Of a stretch of 39,244 nt of DNA, positions 24,851 to 34,167 are shown piece after piece. The first letter of the stretch is position 1, and every line of letters starts with the position of its first letter. The stretch lies in assembly GCA_964411285.1 (NCBI GenBank), contig CAYPKL010000187.1, forward strand, positions 1 to 39,244. Reading direction: 5' to 3'. The notes under the pieces were generated by a model. The model worked only from the letters and a program-made list of their open reading frames with translations. It was not told where the DNA came from and did not search any database. Source of the DNA: an uncultured Rikenellaceae bacterium. Lineage in GTDB: Bacteria; Bacteroidota; Bacteroidia; Bacteroidales; VadinHA17. A program made the position numbers and the translations under genes.

Positions 24851-25255
24851 ATGAATCCCTCACATATTGAACATATTGGAATTGCAGTTGAAAATCTCGA
24901 GAATTCAATCAGATTATACGAAACTATCTTCGGATTAAGTTGCTACAGAATTGAAGAAGTAGCCGACCAGAAAGTCCGTACCGCATTTTTCAAAATAGGC
25001 AAGACAAAAATTGAGCTTCTGGAATCGACAGACCCCGAAGGACCGATCAGTAAATTTATTCAGAAGAGAGGCGAAGGTGTTCATCACCTTGCATTTGCAG
25101 TTGATAATATTGAAGAAAAACTTGAAGCGGCACAAAAAGCAGGGGTAAAACTGATTGATTCTGTTCCAAGAGCAGGGGCAGAGGGATTGGAAATTGCATT
25201 TTTGCACCCGAAGTCCACTTATGGGGTGCTTATTGAATTATGTGAAAAAAAGTAA
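24851..25255 (+). CDS. mce: Methylmalonyl-CoA epimerase (VOC/glyoxalase fold)
   Basis: 'IEHIGIAVENLENSIRLYETIFG...GEGVHHLAFAV...IAFLHPKSTYGVLIEL', 134 aa, located immediately upstream of the carboxyltransferase. Confidence 0.85.
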   Translation: MNPSHIEHIGIAVENLENSIRLYETIFGLSCYRIEEVADQKVRTAFFKIGKTKIELLESTDPEGPISKFIQKRGEGVHHLAFAVDNIEEKLEAAQKAGVKLIDSVPRAGAEGLEIAFLHPKSTYGVLIELCEKK

Positions 25256-25274: not shown

Positions 25275-26834
25275 ATGGATAGTCAGGAAAAAGTCAAAAA
25301 ATTAATCGACCTGAGAGAAAAAGCCCGTCTGGGAGGAGGAATTCAAAAAATTGACGACCAGCATTCCAAAGGACGATTAACAGCAAGGGAAAGAATTAAT
25401 ATCCTGCTTGATGAAGGCAGTTTCGAAGAGTATGATATGTTCGTGACCCACAGGACTGAAGATTTTGGAATGGGTAATAAAAAATATCTTTCCGATGGAG
25501 TTGTTACAGGTCATGGTACCATTGACGGAAGAGTAGTGTTTATTTTTGCCCAGGACTTTACAATATTCGGCGGATCACTGTCGGAAACATTTGCTCTTAA
25601 AATCTGTAAGATAATGGATCAGGCCATGAAAGTTGGAGCTCCTGTAATTGGTATTAACGACAGCGGAGGAGCAAGGATCCAGGAAGGTGTAAGAAGCCTG
25701 GCCGGATATGCCGAAATTTTCCAGCGTAATATTCTGGCATCAGGCGTGATTCCACAAATATCAGCAGTCTTTGGCCCGTGCGCGGGAGGAGCAGTTTATT
25801 CGCCCGCTCTTACTGACTTCATCATTATGAGTGAGAAGAGCAGCTATATGTTCGTAACGGGACCAAAAGTTACAAAAACAGTGACAGGTGAGGATATTTC
25901 AACAGAGAACCTTGGCGGATCCCATGTTCATGGAACCAAATCGGGAGTTGCTCATTTTGTCGTTGATGAGGAGGAACATGGCCTTTTGCTTATCCGCAAA
26001 CTACTTAGTTATCTTCCACAGAATAATATGGAGGAGCCGCCTCTAACCGAATGTGACGATCCGATAGAAAGGAAAGATGATGACCTGAACAGAATTATTC
26101 CTGAAAATACAAATCAACCTTATGAGATAAAGGATATTATTTATAAAATTATTGATAATAATGAATTCCTGGAGATCCACGCCGGGTATGCCAGAAATAT
26201 AGTTGTTGGTTTTGCAAAAATGGGTGGTATGCCTGTTGGAATTGTTGCAAATCAACCTAATTTTCTGGCCGGAGTGCTCGACATAGATGCATCGAGAAAA
26301 GCAGCAAGATTTGTAAGGTTTTGTGATGCTTTTAACATTCCTATTATTACCCTGGTTGATGTCCCCGGCTTCCTGCCAGGCAGTGGACAGGAGTATGGCG
26401 GCATAATCGTCCATGGGGCAAAATTGATGTTTGCTTATGGAGAGGCCACAGTACCAAAAGTTACGGTCACTCTGCGAAAGTCGTATGGGGGAGCTCATTG
26501 CGTAATGTCATCAAAACAGTTGCATGGCGATATTAATTATGCATGGCCTTCAGCCGAAATTGCCGTGATGGGGCCATCAGGGGCAATAGAGATCCTCGAA
26601 GGCAGGACATTAAGTGAGATTAATGACCCTGATAAAAAAGCGTCATACATTTCTGAAAAGGAAACTGAATACCGGAATAAATTTGCAAATCCCTATGAGG
26701 CAGCCAGATATGGCTACATCGACGATGTCATTGAACCCAGGAATACAAGATTCAGAATTATCAGGGCCCTGCGGACTCTGGCAACAAAGAAAGATCCGGG
26801 ACCTATGAAAAAACATGCCAATATACCTTTGTAA
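25275..26834 (+). CDS. mmdA: Methylmalonyl-CoA decarboxylase alpha subunit / acyl-CoA carboxyltransferase
   Basis: Carboxyl-transferase family motifs 'FAQDFTIFGGSL', 'NDSGGARIQEG' and 'GPCAGGAVYSPALTDF', 519 aa. The decarboxylase assignment (rather than carboxylase) rests on operon context. Confidence 0.85.
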   Translation: MDSQEKVKKLIDLREKARLGGGIQKIDDQHSKGRLTARERINILLDEGSFEEYDMFVTHRTEDFGMGNKKYLSDGVVTGHGTIDGRVVFIFAQDFTIFGGSLSETFALKICKIMDQAMKVGAPVIGINDSGGARIQEGVRSLAGYAEIFQRNILASGVIPQISAVFGPCAGGAVYSPALTDFIIMSEKSSYMFVTGPKVTKTVTGEDISTENLGGSHVHGTKSGVAHFVVDEEEHGLLLIRKLLSYLPQNNMEEPPLTECDDPIERKDDDLNRIIPENTNQPYEIKDIIYKIIDNNEFLEIHAGYARNIVVGFAKMGGMPVGIVANQPNFLAGVLDIDASRKAARFVRFCDAFNIPIITLVDVPGFLPGSGQEYGGIIVHGAKLMFAYGEATVPKVTVTLRKSYGGAHCVMSSKQLHGDINYAWPSAEIAVMGPSGAIEILEGRTLSEINDPDKKASYISEKETEYRNKFANPYEAARYGYIDDVIEPRNTRFRIIRALRTLATKKDPGPMKKHANIPL

Positions 26835-27268: not shown

Positions 27269-27688
27269 ATGAAAAACTTTAAATTTGCGATTGACGGAAA
27301 AGAATACGACGTGGAAGTCCTCTCACTCAATGGGACTACTGCTAAATTGAAAGTAAATGGCACTGACTATAACGTTGAGATACAAAAAGAAACGAAAGTC
27401 AATAAGACTCCGATTGTTGTGAGATCATCAATCAGGGAACCTCAGAAAGATATTGAGAAAAAGACCGGCGGTCCGAAAACTGAAGTTAAGTCCCCGCTTC
27501 CAGGCATTATTGTAAAGATATTTGTTACTGTCGGTGAGTCGGTTCAGAAAAATCAGAGATTATTCAGTCTTGAGGCAATGAAAATGGAAAATGAAATAAA
27601 AGCGGAACGAGACGGAGTAATTACAGGTATTAAGGTTGCACCTGGGCAATCAGTACTTCAGGATGAAAATATTTTGGAAATGGATTAG
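27269..27688 (+). CDS. mmdC: Biotin carboxyl carrier protein (MmdC-like)
   Basis: Biotinylation motif 'LEAMKMENEI' in a C-terminal biotinyl/lipoyl domain, 139 aa. Confidence 0.85.
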   Translation: MKNFKFAIDGKEYDVEVLSLNGTTAKLKVNGTDYNVEIQKETKVNKTPIVVRSSIREPQKDIEKKTGGPKTEVKSPLPGIIVKIFVTVGESVQKNQRLFSLEAMKMENEIKAERDGVITGIKVAPGQSVLQDENILEMD

Positions 27689-27762: not shown

Positions 27763-27770
27763 TAGGTTTG
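27763..27770 (+). promoter_or_regulatory. Bacteroidota -7 promoter box (TAGGTTTG)
   Basis: Exact TAnnTTTG match 25 nt upstream of the citDE ATG, inside the 106-nt gap after the BCCP gene. It overlaps a small hairpin, gtttgt-attgaa-acaaac. Confidence 0.5.
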
Positions 27771-27794: not shown

Positions 27795-29012
27795 ATGAGC
27801 ATTATGTTGGCACATGCTGGAAATTCAGGTCCCAAAGTCAGATCCGATTGTGAGGTAACTCTTGAGTTGAAAAACGAGGGAGGAATAGTAATTGAACTGA
27901 AATCAAAGGTTTACCCTTTATATGGCGTTTCAATAAAAAATCTTTGCCTTGATATCCTGTCATTTTTCGGAATTAAAGATGCTTATCTGAAAATCGAAGA
28001 TGCCGGAGCTCTGCCTTTTGTTATTTCGGCCCGACTGGAAGCTGCTGTAAAGCAAATTGTGGATACGGACCTTGAATATCTTCCTGATCTTATTTCTGAA
28101 AACCTCTATTCAACAAACGCTGACAGGTTTCGTTTTTCTCGTCTTTATCTCCCCGGCAATACACCCGGCATGATGATAAATGCGGGATTACATTCCGCAG
28201 ACGGCATTATCCTGGACCTTGAGGATTCAGTAGCTCCTGAAAGAAAAAATGAAGCCAGAATACTTGTCAGGAACGCTTTGAGGCAGGTAAATTTCTATGG
28301 TGCCGAGCGTATGGTAAGGATAAATCAGGGGGACCGCGGACTGAGGGATCTTGATTCCGTTATACCCCATAATGTAAATCTGGTACTTATTCCCAAATGC
28401 GAGAACCCCGATGCTATTGTTTCTGTAGAAAAACGGATTTCAGAAATAAAGAGGCGCCATAACCTTAATAATCCAGTATATCTTATGCCGATCATTGAAT
28501 CGGCGCTCGGAATTGAAAAAGCATTCATGATTGCCGGATCTTCAGAAAACATTGTGGCATTGGCAATAGGACTGGAAGATTTTACTGCTGATCTGGGCGT
28601 TCAGAGAACAAAGGAGGGTATAGAGTCACTCTATGGAAGAACAAGGTTGGTGATAGCTGCCAAGGCTGCGGGTAAACAGCCGATTGATTCTGTGTTTTCG
28701 GATGTAGATGATATGGATGGACTTCTGAAAAATGTCCTGGCCTCGAAAGCTCTGGGTTTTGAAGGAATGGGATGTATACACCCTCGTCAGATACCAGTTA
28801 TCAGGCAGGGATATGCTCCTGAAAATGGTGAAATAGAAAAATCCAAAATGATCGTTATGGCTTTTAAAGAGGCTGAAAAAAAAGGTCAGGGAGTAGTTGC
28901 CCTGGGATCTAAAATGATCGATTCGCCTGTGGTGGCTCGGGCACAAAAAACAATTGACCTTGCAATTAAGCTGGGGTTATTACCAGACAACTGGATAAAT
29001 GAAATTTCCTAG
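27795..29012 (+). CDS. citDE: Fused citrate lyase acyl carrier protein (gamma, CitD) and citryl-CoA lyase (beta, CitE)
   Basis: The N-terminal ~95 aa are CitD-like ('AGNSGPKVRSDCEVTLE...', compare the AGTLESxDV prosthetic-group Ser region). The remainder is CitE/HpcH-like ('RLYLPGNTPGMMINAGLHSADGIILDLEDSVAP', 'MPIIESALGIE', 'LEDFTADLG'). Confidence 0.75.
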   Translation: MSIMLAHAGNSGPKVRSDCEVTLELKNEGGIVIELKSKVYPLYGVSIKNLCLDILSFFGIKDAYLKIEDAGALPFVISARLEAAVKQIVDTDLEYLPDLISENLYSTNADRFRFSRLYLPGNTPGMMINAGLHSADGIILDLEDSVAPERKNEARILVRNALRQVNFYGAERMVRINQGDRGLRDLDSVIPHNVNLVLIPKCENPDAIVSVEKRISEIKRRHNLNNPVYLMPIIESALGIEKAFMIAGSSENIVALAIGLEDFTADLGVQRTKEGIESLYGRTRLVIAAKAAGKQPIDSVFSDVDDMDGLLKNVLASKALGFEGMGCIHPRQIPVIRQGYAPENGEIEKSKMIVMAFKEAEKKGQGVVALGSKMIDSPVVARAQKTIDLAIKLGLLPDNWINEIS

Positions 29013-29042
29013 AAAAGAATAAAAATTAACCTGACAGGCGAT

Positions 29043-30599
29043 ATGGCAATCCCTACTGTTATTAATGCTGCCGGCAGAGCAGTGCCTCTCGAAATCAATG
29101 GTAAAGCTGTCATCCCTTTTAAAGGAGTAGGAGGGTACAGGCCATCAGGAAATAAGTATGGCCCGCCAATCCCGACTTGTGCAGATTTTCCTGGTGATGG
29201 CAACAAGGTAGTATCATCACTTGAAGAAGCCCTTAGCAGGTGTGGCCTCCGTGACGGAATGACAATTTCAACCCATCATCACTTACGGGATGGCGATCTT
29301 GTGAGTAACAAGGTATTTGACCTGGCGTCGGCAATGGGGGTGAAAGATCTTGTCTGGTTCCCTTCAGCTTCATTTCCATGTAATGATCCTGTAATTAAAT
29401 ATCTTGAAGACGGAACCATTAACAGGATTGAAGGTAGTATGAATGGTCCGCTGGGAAGGTTCGTTTCCGAGGGAAGGATGAAAGGTACTGCCGTATTGCG
29501 ATCACATGGCGGACGTGTTCAGGCTATACAGGATGGTGATGTAAAAATAGATATCGCAGTAATAGCAGCTCCTTCTGCCGATTATTACGGAAATGCAAAA
29601 GGTACTGGTGGCCGTTCTGCCTGCGGTGTTTTGGGTTATGCAAAGGTTGATTCAATGTATGCTGAAAAGGTGATTGTTGTGACCGACAATCTGGTGGATA
29701 TTCCATGCTTTCCAATGGAGGTTGAAGGGAATAATGTTGACTATGTAGTTGTTGTTGATAAAATAGGGATTCCGGAAAAAATTGTGTCAGGCACTACCCA
29801 GATCACAAAGAGCCCCGACAGATTATTGATTGCAGAACTCACCGCATCTTTTCTGGAAAAATCTGGCATTCTCAAAGATGGTGTTACAATGCAGGCAGGG
29901 GCTGGTGGTACTTCATTGGCAATAGCCGTGTTCCTACATGAGATTTTAAGGAAAAGGGGGTGGAAGTCAAAATTTGGATTCGGTGGCAGCACCAGGTACA
30001 TGGTTGAAATGCTTGAACAGGGGCAGATGGGATATATTCTTGATGCACAGGTTTTTGATCTTGACTCTGTAGTTTCAGTTGGAAAAAATCCCAACCATAT
30101 CCCATACTCGGTTTTTAATGCTTATAACTACCATTCTAAAGGTAATCTTACCAGTATGATGGATATTATGATACTTGGCGCTACCGAAATTGACCTTAAA
30201 TTCAATGGTAATGTGGTCACTCACTCTGACGGATATCTGCTTCACGGAATCGGAGGCTGGCAGAATTGTCTGCACGCAAGAAACGTAATATTGCCGGTAC
30301 CTCTTTTCCGCGACAGGATACCCGTTATTGTTGATGAGGTTACAACACTTTGTGGTCCCGGAGAGCTTATTGATGTAATTATCACCGAAAGAGGGATAGC
30401 AATTAATCCTTTGAGAAAGGATCTTATTGAGAGCGTCAGAAACAGCAATCTTCCTGTTGTGACCATTGAGGAGCTTAAAGCTGAAGCTGATAAAATATGC
30501 GGTATACCAATGAAACCTGAGTTCGAAGATGATATTGTTGCAGCCATAAAATGGGTCGATGGCACCGTAATTGATGTTGTCCGAAAAATTAAATCCTGA
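29043..30599 (+). CDS. citF: Citrate lyase alpha subunit (citrate CoA-transferase)
   Basis: 518 aa. 'KVVSSLEEALSRCGLRDGMTISTHHHLRDGD' and the overall length and pattern are typical of CitF. It sits immediately downstream of citDE. Confidence 0.8.
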   Translation: MAIPTVINAAGRAVPLEINGKAVIPFKGVGGYRPSGNKYGPPIPTCADFPGDGNKVVSSLEEALSRCGLRDGMTISTHHHLRDGDLVSNKVFDLASAMGVKDLVWFPSASFPCNDPVIKYLEDGTINRIEGSMNGPLGRFVSEGRMKGTAVLRSHGGRVQAIQDGDVKIDIAVIAAPSADYYGNAKGTGGRSACGVLGYAKVDSMYAEKVIVVTDNLVDIPCFPMEVEGNNVDYVVVVDKIGIPEKIVSGTTQITKSPDRLLIAELTASFLEKSGILKDGVTMQAGAGGTSLAIAVFLHEILRKRGWKSKFGFGGSTRYMVEMLEQGQMGYILDAQVFDLDSVVSVGKNPNHIPYSVFNAYNYHSKGNLTSMMDIMILGATEIDLKFNGNVVTHSDGYLLHGIGGWQNCLHARNVILPVPLFRDRIPVIVDEVTTLCGPGELIDVIITERGIAINPLRKDLIESVRNSNLPVVTIEELKAEADKICGIPMKPEFEDDIVAAIKWVDGTVIDVVRKIKS

Positions 30600-30613: not shown

Positions 30614-30772
30614 ATGGAAAAATTTAAATGTTCAATCTGTGGTTTTGTCTACGATCCGGAAGAGGGCGACAGCGCTTCCGGCATTGACCAGGGAGTTCAG
30701 TTCAGTGAACTTCCTTCTGATTATATATGCCCCATCTGCGGCGCGGGGAAGGATGAATTCTATGTATGTTAA
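30614..30772 (+). CDS. rub: Rubredoxin (52 aa; absent from the ORF track)
   Basis: My own translation from the ATG at 30614 gives MEKFKCSICGFVYDPEEGDSASGIDQGVQFSELPSDYICPICGAGKDEFYVC*. It has the canonical CxxCG...CPxCG pairs and the YDP / F..LP core. Confidence 0.85.
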   Translation: MEKFKCSICGFVYDPEEGDSASGIDQGVQFSELPSDYICPICGAGKDEFYVC

Positions 30773-32403: not shown

Positions 32404-33600
32404 ATGAATAAAAGAACAATTGTAACATTACCCGGCGATGGGATCGGCTTAATAGTTTTGGAACAGGCATTAAGGGTTCTTGATGCCTCAGGATTTAAAG
32501 CAGACTATATTCATGCAGATATTGGCTGGGAATTCTGGCGTAGGGAAGGAAATCCTTTGCCCCAGAGAACTCTTGATCTTATTAAGACCCATAAAATTGC
32601 CCTGTTTGGTGCAATTACATCAAAACCAAACGAGGAGGCGGCTTCCGAACTAGACAGCTCTCTTCAGGGAAAAGGCTTTGTGTACTCAAGTCCGATAGTT
32701 GGTCTGCGACAGAAATTCAACCTTGACATTTGTTTACGCCCATGCAAATCATATAATGGAAATCCCCTGAACTTCATCAGAAGGGGTAAAGACAACATGA
32801 TAGAGGAACCTTCTGTTGATGTTGTGATCTTTCGCCAGAATACCGAATGCCTTTATTCAGGAGTGGAATGGACGAATCCCCCGGAACAGGTATATCAGGC
32901 ATTGATGACTCATCGTAAGTTTGCAGAGAACTTCAGTAAAGTCCCGCGCGAAGAACTATCAGTTTCGGCAAGGATCTTTACAAAAAAAGCCACCGAAAGA
33001 ATTGTTTCTGCAGCTTTTGAACATGCCAGAAAATATGGATATAAATCAGTTACAGTATGTGAAAAACCAAATGTGATCCGTGAAACATCAGGATTGATGT
33101 GGAAGATTGCAAAAGAGATGCAGAAGAACAGCTATCCTGAAATTAAATTGCTGAATACCAATATTGATGCCCAGATGATGTGGTTGACAAAGAATCCGGA
33201 AGATTATGGGGTTATTGTTGCCGGAAATATGTTCGGCGACATTGTATCTGACGCATTTGCAGGATTGATAGGAGGACTGGGATTTGCGTGCAGCGCTCAG
33301 TTTTCATCCGATGGAATTGCTGTCTTTGAACCCACTCACGGATCTGCGCCTAAATACGCCGGCTATGAGATCCCCATTGTCAATCCTGTTGCCATGATTG
33401 AATCTGCATGCATGATGCTTGACTATATCGACGAAAAAGCTATTTCTTCGAAAATCAGAAAAGCTGTTGCAGAGGTAATAATTGAGGGTAAAGTCAAAAC
33501 TTACGATATGATGAAGCTTTCCGGAAGACCTGATGTGGTAAATAACGGAGCAGCTTCTACAATACAGATGACAGACGCAATAATTTCAAAACTTAAATAG
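32404..33600 (+). CDS. Isocitrate/isopropylmalate dehydrogenase-family beta-decarboxylating dehydrogenase (substrate not assignable by eye)
   Basis: Family signature 'NMFGDIVSDAFAGLIGGLG', N-terminal 'IVTLPGDGIG', and 'LRQKFNLDICLRP'. Confidence 0.8.
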   Translation: MNKRTIVTLPGDGIGLIVLEQALRVLDASGFKADYIHADIGWEFWRREGNPLPQRTLDLIKTHKIALFGAITSKPNEEAASELDSSLQGKGFVYSSPIVGLRQKFNLDICLRPCKSYNGNPLNFIRRGKDNMIEEPSVDVVIFRQNTECLYSGVEWTNPPEQVYQALMTHRKFAENFSKVPREELSVSARIFTKKATERIVSAAFEHARKYGYKSVTVCEKPNVIRETSGLMWKIAKEMQKNSYPEIKLLNTNIDAQMMWLTKNPEDYGVIVAGNMFGDIVSDAFAGLIGGLGFACSAQFSSDGIAVFEPTHGSAPKYAGYEIPIVNPVAMIESACMMLDYIDEKAISSKIRKAVAEVIIEGKVKTYDMMKLSGRPDVVNNGAASTIQMTDAIISKLK

Positions 33601-33615
33601 TCAAAATCATTCTTA

Positions 33616-34167
33616 ATGAAAGAAACTATTAGAAATTTATGGCCTGAGCTTGAATGGATTAACGATGAATCCCTTCGTGAAAAGACCGCCAGAACCTGGG
33701 AAATAGCTCTGGAAAGAAGTGCACTTAAGGCGGAAGATCTTGACCGGATACCATTTACACTACTATGCGGACCGGATCTGAAAGTGAGCTTCATGGATCA
33801 TAAAAGATGCGTAGTTCACATCGCCAAAGCTTCCGGTGAGAAAATGAATGATTTTTTTGGCAAGGATATGCCTGTTAATATGGATGTGCTTATCTCAGGA
33901 GCTATACTCGCTGACGTTGGAAAATTGCTCGAATATGAACTTGATGCAGAAGGGAAAGCTGTTCAGGGAAGATATGGACAATATATGAGGCATCCGTTCT
34001 CAGGAGTTTCACTCGCTGAGGAGTGCGGGGTTCCGCCCGAGGTATGTCATATAATTGCGGCTCATGCCCATGAGGGTGATCTCGTTAAGCGTACTGTTGA
34101 AGCTTACATTGTACATCATGCCGACTTTATGACCTTTCTCCCCTTTAAAGACCGTCTTGTCATTTAA
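33616..34167 (+). CDS. HD-superfamily-like small protein (variant motif)
   Basis: The layout 'HKRCVVHIAKASG...GAILADVGKLLEY...RHPFSGVSLAEE...IIAAHAHEGD' parallels HD-domain phosphohydrolases. The canonical His-Asp dipeptide reads Ala-Asp. Confidence 0.5.
   Translation: MKETIRNLWPELEWINDESLREKTARTWEIALERSALKAEDLDRIPFTLLCGPDLKVSFMDHKRCVVHIAKASGEKMNDFFGKDMPVNMDVLISGAILADVGKLLEYELDAEGKAVQGRYGQYMRHPFSGVSLAEECGVPPEVCHIIAAHAHEGDLVKRTVEAYIVHHADFMTFLPFKDRLVI

Follow-up and report, generated by a model that had tools for sequence, protein, structure and literature searches.

Classical citrate lyase requires an unusual covalent cofactor, together with three dedicated helper genes. The prosthetic group is carried by the CitD subunit, an acyl carrier protein (ACP), at Ser14 (in Klebsiella and E. 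coli), within the motif L-E-S-x-D. Pathway-reconstruction tools call 'citrate lyase' from citE and citF alone. Here, we describe a citDE–citF locus on a 39,244-nt stretch of DNA (contig CAYPKL010000187.1, assembly GCA_964411285.1; henceforth termed the window, meaning this whole stretch) from an uncultured Rikenellaceae bacterium, in which a CitD-like carrier domain and a CitE-like lyase domain are joined in one polypeptide. This architecture was annotated in 2012 in the genome paper of Ignavibacterium album (CitF, IALB_1146; fused CitE/CitD, IALB_1147; PMC3362086). The accessible part of that paper puts forward citrate fermentation or a role in an unconventional reverse tricarboxylic acid (TCA) cycle, treats the genes as annotations only, contains no biochemistry, and mentions neither the missing activation genes nor the lost Ser. 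The fusion itself is hence already known; what appears to be new is the loss of both the activation system and the attachment Ser from the clade containing it. Within a literature coverage that left out most subscription journals, we found no report on the loss of CitG, CitX and CitC, on the lost Ser, on an HD-like partner protein or on the biochemistry of the clade.

An earlier note on this DNA had suggested a non-canonical lyase, a suggestion borne out by the separate clades formed by its CitE and CitF sequences and by the lineage-wide lack of activation genes. Going by sequence comparisons, we think on balance that the citDE–citF clade gave up the covalent 2'-(5''-phosphoribosyl)-3'-dephospho-CoA cofactor and works with free acetyl-CoA instead. 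The elements at the center of this proposal are the following, with a spacing of 30 nt between the two genes.

27795..29012, + strand: citDE, a CitD–CitE fusion of 405 amino acids (aa), identified by Pfam and NCBIfam matches

27840..27851, + strand: Arg16-Ser17-Asp18-Cys19 motif in the place of the canonical E-S-x-D attachment site, from alignment A1

29043..30599, + strand: citF, alpha subunit/CoA-transferase of 518 aa, TIGR01584 match of 523.2 bits (cut-off 501.45)

The domain assignment given in the earlier note, a 405-aa open reading frame (ORF) that combines a CitD-like ACP with a CitE-like domain and is followed by CitF, agrees with matches to PF06857, PF03328 and TIGR01584. The N-terminal region does align with CitD: residues 17-87 match PF06857 (CitD/MdcD-type ACP) with 64.2 bits at a cut-off of 25.1, and the match to the citD model TIGR01608 (57.7 bits) lies just below the cut-off of 63.5. 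Residues 117-330 correspond to PF03328 (HpcH/HpaI-CitE; 165 bits). The best NCBIfam model for the whole protein is citE TIGR01588 (253 bits, cut-off 443), followed by RipC, the citramalyl-CoA lyase of an itaconate pathway, with 145 bits. The gamma component is therefore a domain of the CitDE polypeptide and not a separate subunit, in a layout that comprises an ACP-like domain (1-88), an ordered linker (~89-114) and a CitE triosephosphate isomerase (TIM) barrel (115-405). CitF additionally matches PF04223 with 474.6 bits and has 2hj0 and 1xr4 as relatives among entries of the PDB.

Alignment A1 places the Ser of two canonical carriers, Ser14 of E. coli CitD (L-E-S-G-D) and its counterpart in the split CitD of a relative, G038 (L-E-S-S-D), opposite Arg16 of CitDE. 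Ser17, which the earlier note had equated with the prosthetic-group Ser on the basis of the 'VRSDCEV' region, is offset by one residue: it occupies the variable 'x' beyond the canonical Ser and adjoins the invariant Asp18. Nor is it conserved across the fused family. From clusters at 50% identity, we took 65 fused representatives and counted, from their alignment, the residues at positions -2 and -1 relative to the invariant Asp. Position -2 is basic in 59/65 (Arg 34, Lys 25) and Ser in 3; position -1 is Ser in 23, Gly in 16, Asn in 10, Ala in 9, Gln in 3, Cys in 2, and Arg and Asp in 1 each. Mapped onto the CitE tree, Ser has a patchy distribution: its 23 rows require 19 changes, a result that 87 of 500 shuffles also achieved. 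Close to the window protein on this tree are proteins with K-N-D (P0125) and R-N-D (P0140). Judged from these counts, the fused family has no family-wide conserved Ser, whichever alignment of the one-residue offset is chosen. Representatives without Ser are found next to citF, as in P0137 (K-G-D), where citF and then acetate kinase follow, and in P0146 (R-G-D), where citF is adjacent; in P0153 (R-G-D), citF lies 5 kb off. On the short contigs of P0125, P0136 and P0228 (2.8 kb), the gene context is unreadable. P0228, on its 2.8-kb contig, encodes a fused protein with a canonical LESSD motif.

The window contains no citC, citX or citG, as had been stated before, and none came to light elsewhere in the metagenome-assembled genome (MAG) to which it belongs (G000; 3.49 Mb, 534 contigs, 87.5% complete). 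Profile searches of this genome for CitG (PF01874), CitX (PF03802) and CitC (TIGR00124), which found the E. coli control, yielded no match, and tblastn with the E. coli and Bacteroidales proteins returned nothing. The fusion gene occurs in 27 of 40 relatives, namely 23 of 24 within the genus and further ones in 4 other families of the order; CitG, CitX and CitC were found in none of these 27, many of which are 97-100% complete. G038, which alone among the relatives has citD and citE as separate genes, carries citD-citE-citF-citXG-citC in tandem. Since related genomes are non-independent samples, these counts should be read accordingly. Of 200 high-quality genomes sampled from the phylum, 17 carry the fusion (nearly all of these listed as 99-100% complete) and 183 do not; CitX above the cut-off was detected in 0/17 carriers. 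A scan of one genome per species gave 51 fused and 27 split loci, and phmmer searches of all ORFs within 10 kb found citX, citG or citC at 0/51 fused versus 11/27 split loci. Whole-genome searches of five genomes with fused loci found no CitX in four, including the chromosome-level assemblies of L033 (Bacteroidales) and L061 (Phycisphaerales); the sole carrier with CitX is the genome of L071 (Geopsychrobacteraceae). The absence from whole genomes of relatives means that the window edges are not the cause, and these searches support a real, lineage-wide trait over a window-edge artefact. An assembly gap was ruled out as the cause by the whole-genome searches of 41 related genomes, 200 genomes of the phylum and 10 locus genomes. 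The data likewise speak against activation in trans, which the earlier note had entertained, as neither G000 nor the 27 fusion-bearing relatives yielded CitG, CitX or CitC and the phylum carriers yielded no CitX.

The fusion is common, with about 8,000 close matches in many 50%-identity clusters, and fused loci span more than ten phyla, among them Bacteroidota, Ignavibacteriota, Planctomycetota, Fidelibacterota, Acidobacteriota, Cloacimonadota, KSB1, Krumholzibacteriota, Chloroflexota, Armatimonadota and WOR-3. Of the things that would have made the locus unremarkable, only the commonness of such fusions thus holds: they are not characterized, and citC, citX and citG did not turn up elsewhere. 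A maximum-likelihood tree built from CitE domains has a branch, with a support of 96 in the Shimodaira–Hasegawa-like approximate likelihood ratio test (SH-aLRT), that sets 47 fused sequences and one truncated sequence apart from the split enzymes; on the split side, citrate lyases linked to CitX, CitG and CitC and citramalate lyases linked to glutamate mutase are intermixed. CitF proteins from fused loci partition off likewise, so that fused CitE and CitF each form a clade of their own. Both trees come from quick searches with SH-aLRT as the only support measure. L082 (WOR-3), located on the split side of the CitE tree, represents an independent fusion event. In two further proteins, P0148 (943 aa) and P0209 (927 aa), CitF, CitD-like and CitE regions are joined in single polypeptides.

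Two related MAGs, each assembled into few contigs, carry in-frame TGA codons in citDE (G003, locus L121, contig C5; G022, locus L122, contig C7). We considered and discarded recoding, because the TGA codons are confined to short out-of-frame stretches, which points to frameshifts or assembly indels; most likely, the disruptions of citDE, and in G022 also of citF, are indel errors or pseudogenes.

A comparable change is seen among split enzymes. The split CitD of three Oscillospiraceae genomes (loci L085, L096 and L101 in G041-G043; two labelled Faecousia) has E-K-S-D, and CitX was found in 0/3 of these whole genomes. At least L096 lies inside a glutamate-mutase, i.e., citramalate lyase, cluster. 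Comparison loci with CitX in their genomes are L086 (L-E-S-S-D) and L108. Judging by these E-K-S-D proteins, the CitDEF family appears to have lost the prosthetic-group system a second time, independently. A DHVE2 archaeon has the motif L-E-K-G-D.

An AlphaFold2 model of the whole 405-aa CitDE, built with 57 homologues, reached a predicted local distance difference test (pLDDT) score of 96.5 and a predicted template modeling score (pTM) of 0.94, with the linker ordered. Since the high pTM extends across both domains, the model predicts an ACP-like alpha/beta domain fixed rigidly on the TIM barrel rather than loosely tethered or swinging. The top structural match is human CLYBL (5vxc; root-mean-square deviation 1.8 A, TM score 0.89), and the leading Foldseek matches (5vxc, 5ugr, 4l9y, 6aq4, 8khl) include CLYBL, malyl-CoA lyases, M. 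tuberculosis CitE and citramalyl-CoA lyase, all binders of free CoA esters. The TIM barrel retains the Mg-binding and catalytic motifs of CitE-like lyases (DxED, R, E, D and the C-terminal lid Asp). The catalytic-type motifs LDLEDSV, VRIN, IIES, GLEDF, IHPRQ and MIDSP show little or no variation across the 57 fused homologues, and all six align with the corresponding motifs of CLYBL.

In the mechanism that we propose, CitF would move CoA from free acetyl-CoA onto citrate to give citryl-CoA and acetate, and the CitE domain would split citryl-CoA into oxaloacetate, giving back acetyl-CoA. Acetyl-CoA would thus act as a catalytic, non-covalent cofactor, making CitG, CitX and CitC unnecessary. The former carrier domain would persist as a structural or docking element held rigidly in place and, speculatively, Arg16, in the place of the phosphodiester-bearing Ser, might interact with phosphate groups of the free CoA ester. 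We infer the use of free CoA esters from the loss of the tethering system, and the fold and motifs of the CitE domain, which are those of free CoA-ester enzymes (CLYBL, malyl-CoA lyase, citramalyl-CoA lyase), support this view. In the 1970s, Dimroth and Eggerer reportedly showed for the Klebsiella enzyme that its alpha and beta subunits, once isolated, use acetyl-CoA and citryl-CoA in free form. As for physiology, the substrate would be internally made citrate, possibly a homologue, given that no citrate-uptake gene is linked to the locus. G000 has no 2HCT citrate carrier, only a weak CitMHS match, and no recurrent transporter was seen across the fused loci.

Two further genes of the window are co-inherited with the lyase.

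32404..33600, + strand: beta-decarboxylating dehydrogenase of 398 aa, isocitrate dehydrogenase (IDH)-like, nearest to homoisocitrate/isocitrate dehydrogenase models and below all cut-offs

33616..34167, + strand: HD-fold protein of 183 aa, HDIG match TIGR00277 of 32 bits

The HD-fold gene is present in 28 of the 41 related genomes, exactly those with the fusion, and in 15/17 carriers and 0/183 non-carriers of the phylum sample, often on another contig. In the protein, Ala replaces the His of the HD dyad, and H62, D100, H126, H145, H150, H167, H168 and D170 are invariant in alignment A3. A fold search with its model gave generic HD-domain matches only, and a profile search against the PDB gave nothing. 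A link between this protein and the Ser of the RSDC motif was considered and is not supported: two carriers that lack the HD-like gene (G159, G211) still have RSDC. The IDH-like gene lies beside 16 of the 51 fused loci, and its orthologues occur in the same 15/17 carriers of the phylum sample as the HD-fold gene and in 2/183 non-carriers. As G000 also encodes a canonical-type icd fragment directly upstream of the citrate synthase gene gltA (C56:56-1648), the IDH-like gene of the window is an extra paralogue.

Elsewhere, the set is larger. In Planctomycetota, Fidelibacterota and other Bacteroidota, genes for the IDH-like and HD proteins, a fused HacA-HacB protein of the homoaconitase family and a PrpD-family protein precede citDE and citF, in this order; such clusters of IDH-like, HD-like, HacA-HacB (591 aa) and MmgE-PrpD (483 aa) genes by citDE-citF were found at L041, L054, L059, L061, L063, L069, L073 and L092. 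From its gene content, this cluster looks like a self-contained tricarboxylate pathway module. G000 has a HacAB-like gene on contig C22 and no PrpD homologue. The lyase, IDH-like and HD-fold proteins would then provide a co-inherited, ATP-independent link between 2-oxoglutarate, isocitrate and citrate on one side and oxaloacetate plus acetate on the other. A more far-reaching idea, possible although we would not call it probable, is that CitDE, CitF and the HD-fold protein make up an unrecognized three-part lyase system, cofactor-free or armed anew by the HD-fold protein, which together with the IDH-like enzyme and, in other phyla, also HacAB- and PrpD-type (de)hydratases would form an ATP-independent route between 2-oxoglutarate and oxaloacetate plus acetate in anaerobes from more than ten phyla. 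Such a route could serve, e.g., a redox-neutral fermentation of glutamate or 2-oxoglutarate, or an ATP-saving branch of a reductive TCA cycle.

Several observations weigh against free acetyl-CoA as the cofactor and citrate as the substrate. R-S-D-C with Ser17 is invariant in 120/120 of the closest homologues, and the neighboring Ser is kept in 48/51 fused loci. The ACP-like domain is strongly conserved, with D18, GAL, R80 and E82 invariant in the seven-sequence alignment A1, so that it still has some specific job. Together with the strictly co-occurring HD-fold protein, which could be an unrecognized activation factor, this would fit a non-canonical modification of Ser17 in the sub-clade of the window, that is, a covalent thiol cofactor attached by enzymes other than CitX and CitG, such as a phosphopantetheinyl transferase (PPTase) or a system around the HD-fold protein. 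G000 encodes an ACPS-family transferase, and a [KR]-S-D motif arose independently in the split CitD of Oscillospiraceae. E. coli AcpH, which removes the prosthetic group of ACP, is itself a member of the HD superfamily. We nevertheless hold both the modification of Ser17 and this route to it to be rather unlikely. In 42/65 fused representatives, including the near relatives P0125 and P0140, the Ser is replaced by another residue, and genes without it are still paired with CitF. A CitG-type precursor synthase is missing, the dyad of the HD-like protein is incomplete for want of its His, G159 and G211 combine RSDC with the absence of the HD-like gene, and the CitD fold is, by predicted secondary structure, not the four-helix ACP that PPTases recognize. 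That the classical enzyme is simply hidden, with citC, citX and citG in unassembled parts of a MAG that is just 87.5% complete and broken into 534 contigs, is effectively refuted by the same absence in 27 relatives and 17 phylum carriers, many of them 99-100% complete and some assembled to chromosome level, and by the replacement of the canonical Ser as well.

The substrate is a separate matter. The CitE domain scores below the citE equivalog cut-off (253 versus 443 bits), so that citrate is a presumed substrate, and the HacAB-like, AksF-like and PrpD-like neighbors would be equally compatible with reactions of homocitrate, methylcitrate or citramalate. The same chemistry might accordingly act on citramalate, 2-methylcitrate or homocitrate in a module for shortening or lengthening 2-oxoacid chains. 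This agrees with RipC as second-best match, with the conserved homoaconitase-family (TIGR01343, above cut-off), AksF-like dehydrogenase and PrpD-family neighbors, with citramalate lyases of glutamate-mutase clusters being CitDEF homologues nested among citrate lyases in the tree, and with an operon that, in the genus, starts with methylmalonyl-CoA epimerase and so points to propionyl-CoA metabolism. We still regard another substrate as unlikely, given that CitF exceeds the equivalog cut-off of the citrate lyase alpha subunit (523 versus 501), that glutamate mutase or methylaspartase genes occur in 0/51 fused loci, that G000 has no PrpD-family homologue, and that the dehydrogenase is about equally close to the isocitrate and homoisocitrate dehydrogenase models. 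A mainly synthetic role appears more doubtful still. Here, oxaloacetate and acetate, the latter via acetyl-CoA, would yield citrate, and the enzyme would serve as a thioester-conserving substitute for citrate synthase that feeds the IDH-like enzyme for glutamate formation. Claisen cleavage of the CitE/CLYBL type and CoA transfer are both reversible, the genomic tie to the IDH-like gene is tight, and one Ser-less relative has acetate kinase right after citF. Yet the formation of citrate from acetate and oxaloacetate is near-neutral at 1 M and strongly unfavorable at physiological concentrations, and G000 has two citrate synthases, one beside the canonical icd fragment, as well as aconitases. 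The related idea that the lyase replaces an absent citrate synthase was dropped on the same grounds, the two citrate synthases being accompanied by several aconitase-family genes. Free acetyl-CoA as a non-covalent cofactor for the cleavage of citrate remains the reading that we prefer.

Around citDE–citF, the window contains the following features.

24851..25255, + strand: methylmalonyl-CoA epimerase, TIGR03081 match of 159 bits (cut-off 115)

25275-26834, + strand: MmdA-type carboxyltransferase, PF01039/TIGR01117

26846-27208, + strand: small membrane protein of 120 aa, OadG-like by position only, no Pfam match

27269-27688, + strand: biotin carboxyl carrier protein (BCCP), from family scans

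27763..27770, + strand: TAGGTTTG, candidate -7 promoter box, a match to Bacteroidota TAnnTTTG read from the sequence

30614..30772, + strand: rubredoxin gene, 52 aa, from its translation and a PF00301 match of 72 bits

30793..32352, - strand: M20 dipeptidase, PepD-like, PF01546 and PF07687

TAnnTTTG is the consensus of the -7 promoter box in Bacteroidota, and the candidate box sits inside the 106-nt gap upstream of citDE. As regards the biotin-dependent subunits that the earlier note had placed next to the lyase, the BCCP is confirmed and the OadG-like protein is so by position only. Three forms of the locus exist in the genus: epimerase-mmdA-delta-bccp-oadB-citDE (G004, G011, G013), the same order minus oadB (the window and L043), and epimerase directly followed by citDE with the whole cassette missing (G024, G018). 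The epimerase gene heads the locus in the clade of the window even without the mmd cassette (synteny of L011, L012 and L015; 8 fused loci). OAD_beta (PF03977), the OadB/MmdB pump subunit, was not found in the window or anywhere in G000 and is missing from 15/24 genomes of the genus. The carboxyltransferase beside the lyase is of the MmdA type, acting on acyl-CoA, and not of the HMGL-like OadA type; elsewhere in G000 are an OadA/PycB/5S-like gene (contig C104) and mmdA-bccp pairs at two further sites (C432, C293), which makes a transcarboxylase-type use of the cassette possible. The idea that the lyase product oxaloacetate is coupled to the adjacent biotin enzyme, which would decarboxylate it directly, was abandoned in view of the MmdA-type carboxyltransferase (TIGR01117), its position beside the epimerase and the variability of the cassette within the genus. 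The Mmd cassette is best described, from its domain matches and synteny, as a variable insertion of the propionate (methylmalonyl-CoA) route whose tie to the lyase would be at most pathway-level.

On the other side of the lyase genes, rubredoxin is encoded 14 nt past citF, and it directly follows citF in 10 related Bacteroidales loci (L011, L012, L015, L033, L034, L042, L043, L065, L077, L081), though the lyase reaction has no obvious redox step. The M20 dipeptidase gene is a conserved neighbor in the clade of the window, in opposite orientation.

The significance of these findings lies in a large clade, comprising thousands of metagenomic sequences, that has dropped the helpers and the attachment Ser with all three catalytic modules strongly conserved. 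If free acetyl-CoA indeed serves as the cofactor, the two genes would constitute a simpler, portable and ATP-independent citrate-cleaving module of use in metabolic engineering, and they would bear on the long-debated matter of how a reductive TCA cycle could be closed without ATP-citrate lyase in organisms such as Ignavibacterium. The HD-fold protein, whose distribution tracks the lyase almost perfectly, offers a concrete candidate gene.

Compared with CitDEF of Klebsiella pneumoniae and E. coli (EC 4.1.3.6), the locus shares CitF, CitE and CitD-fold modules, the gene order D-E-F and presumably the overall reaction, citrate to acetate and oxaloacetate. It differs in the fusion of gamma and beta, the exchange of Ser for Arg, the separate clade of CitE and CitF, and the lack of CitG, CitX and CitC in the carriers searched, bar CitX in the genome of L071; moreover, no citrate transporter, OadA-type oxaloacetate decarboxylase or two-component regulator is linked to the lyase of the window. 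With the MmdABCD(E) and OadGAB systems, the window has in common an MmdA-type carboxyltransferase, a small membrane protein and a BCCP, to which relatives add an OadB/MmdB pump subunit at this place, whereas G000 is devoid of the beta pump subunit, its carboxyltransferase is of the acyl-CoA type, and the cassette is dispensable at the locus within the genus. Citramalate lyase of glutamate-fermenting Clostridia (EC 4.1.3.22) is likewise a CitDEF homologue, and the Oscillospiraceae examined show E-K-S-D and no CitX; its genes, however, are split, fall on the opposite side of the CitE and CitF trees, and reside in glutamate mutase/methylaspartase clusters, an arrangement seen in 0/51 fused loci. 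CLYBL, malyl- and citramalyl-CoA lyases and the citryl-CoA lyase (CCL) of Hydrogenobacter and Aquifex have the same CitE-type TIM barrel and catalytic motifs and act on free CoA thioesters. In Hydrogenobacter and Aquifex, citryl-CoA comes from an ATP-dependent synthetase, whereas here it would come from the ATP-independent CitF, and unlike the CCL- and CLYBL-type lyases, the enzyme of the window keeps a CitD-fold domain. IALB_1146 and IALB_1147 of I. album have the same architecture, and Ignavibacteriota loci belong to the same clade as the window.

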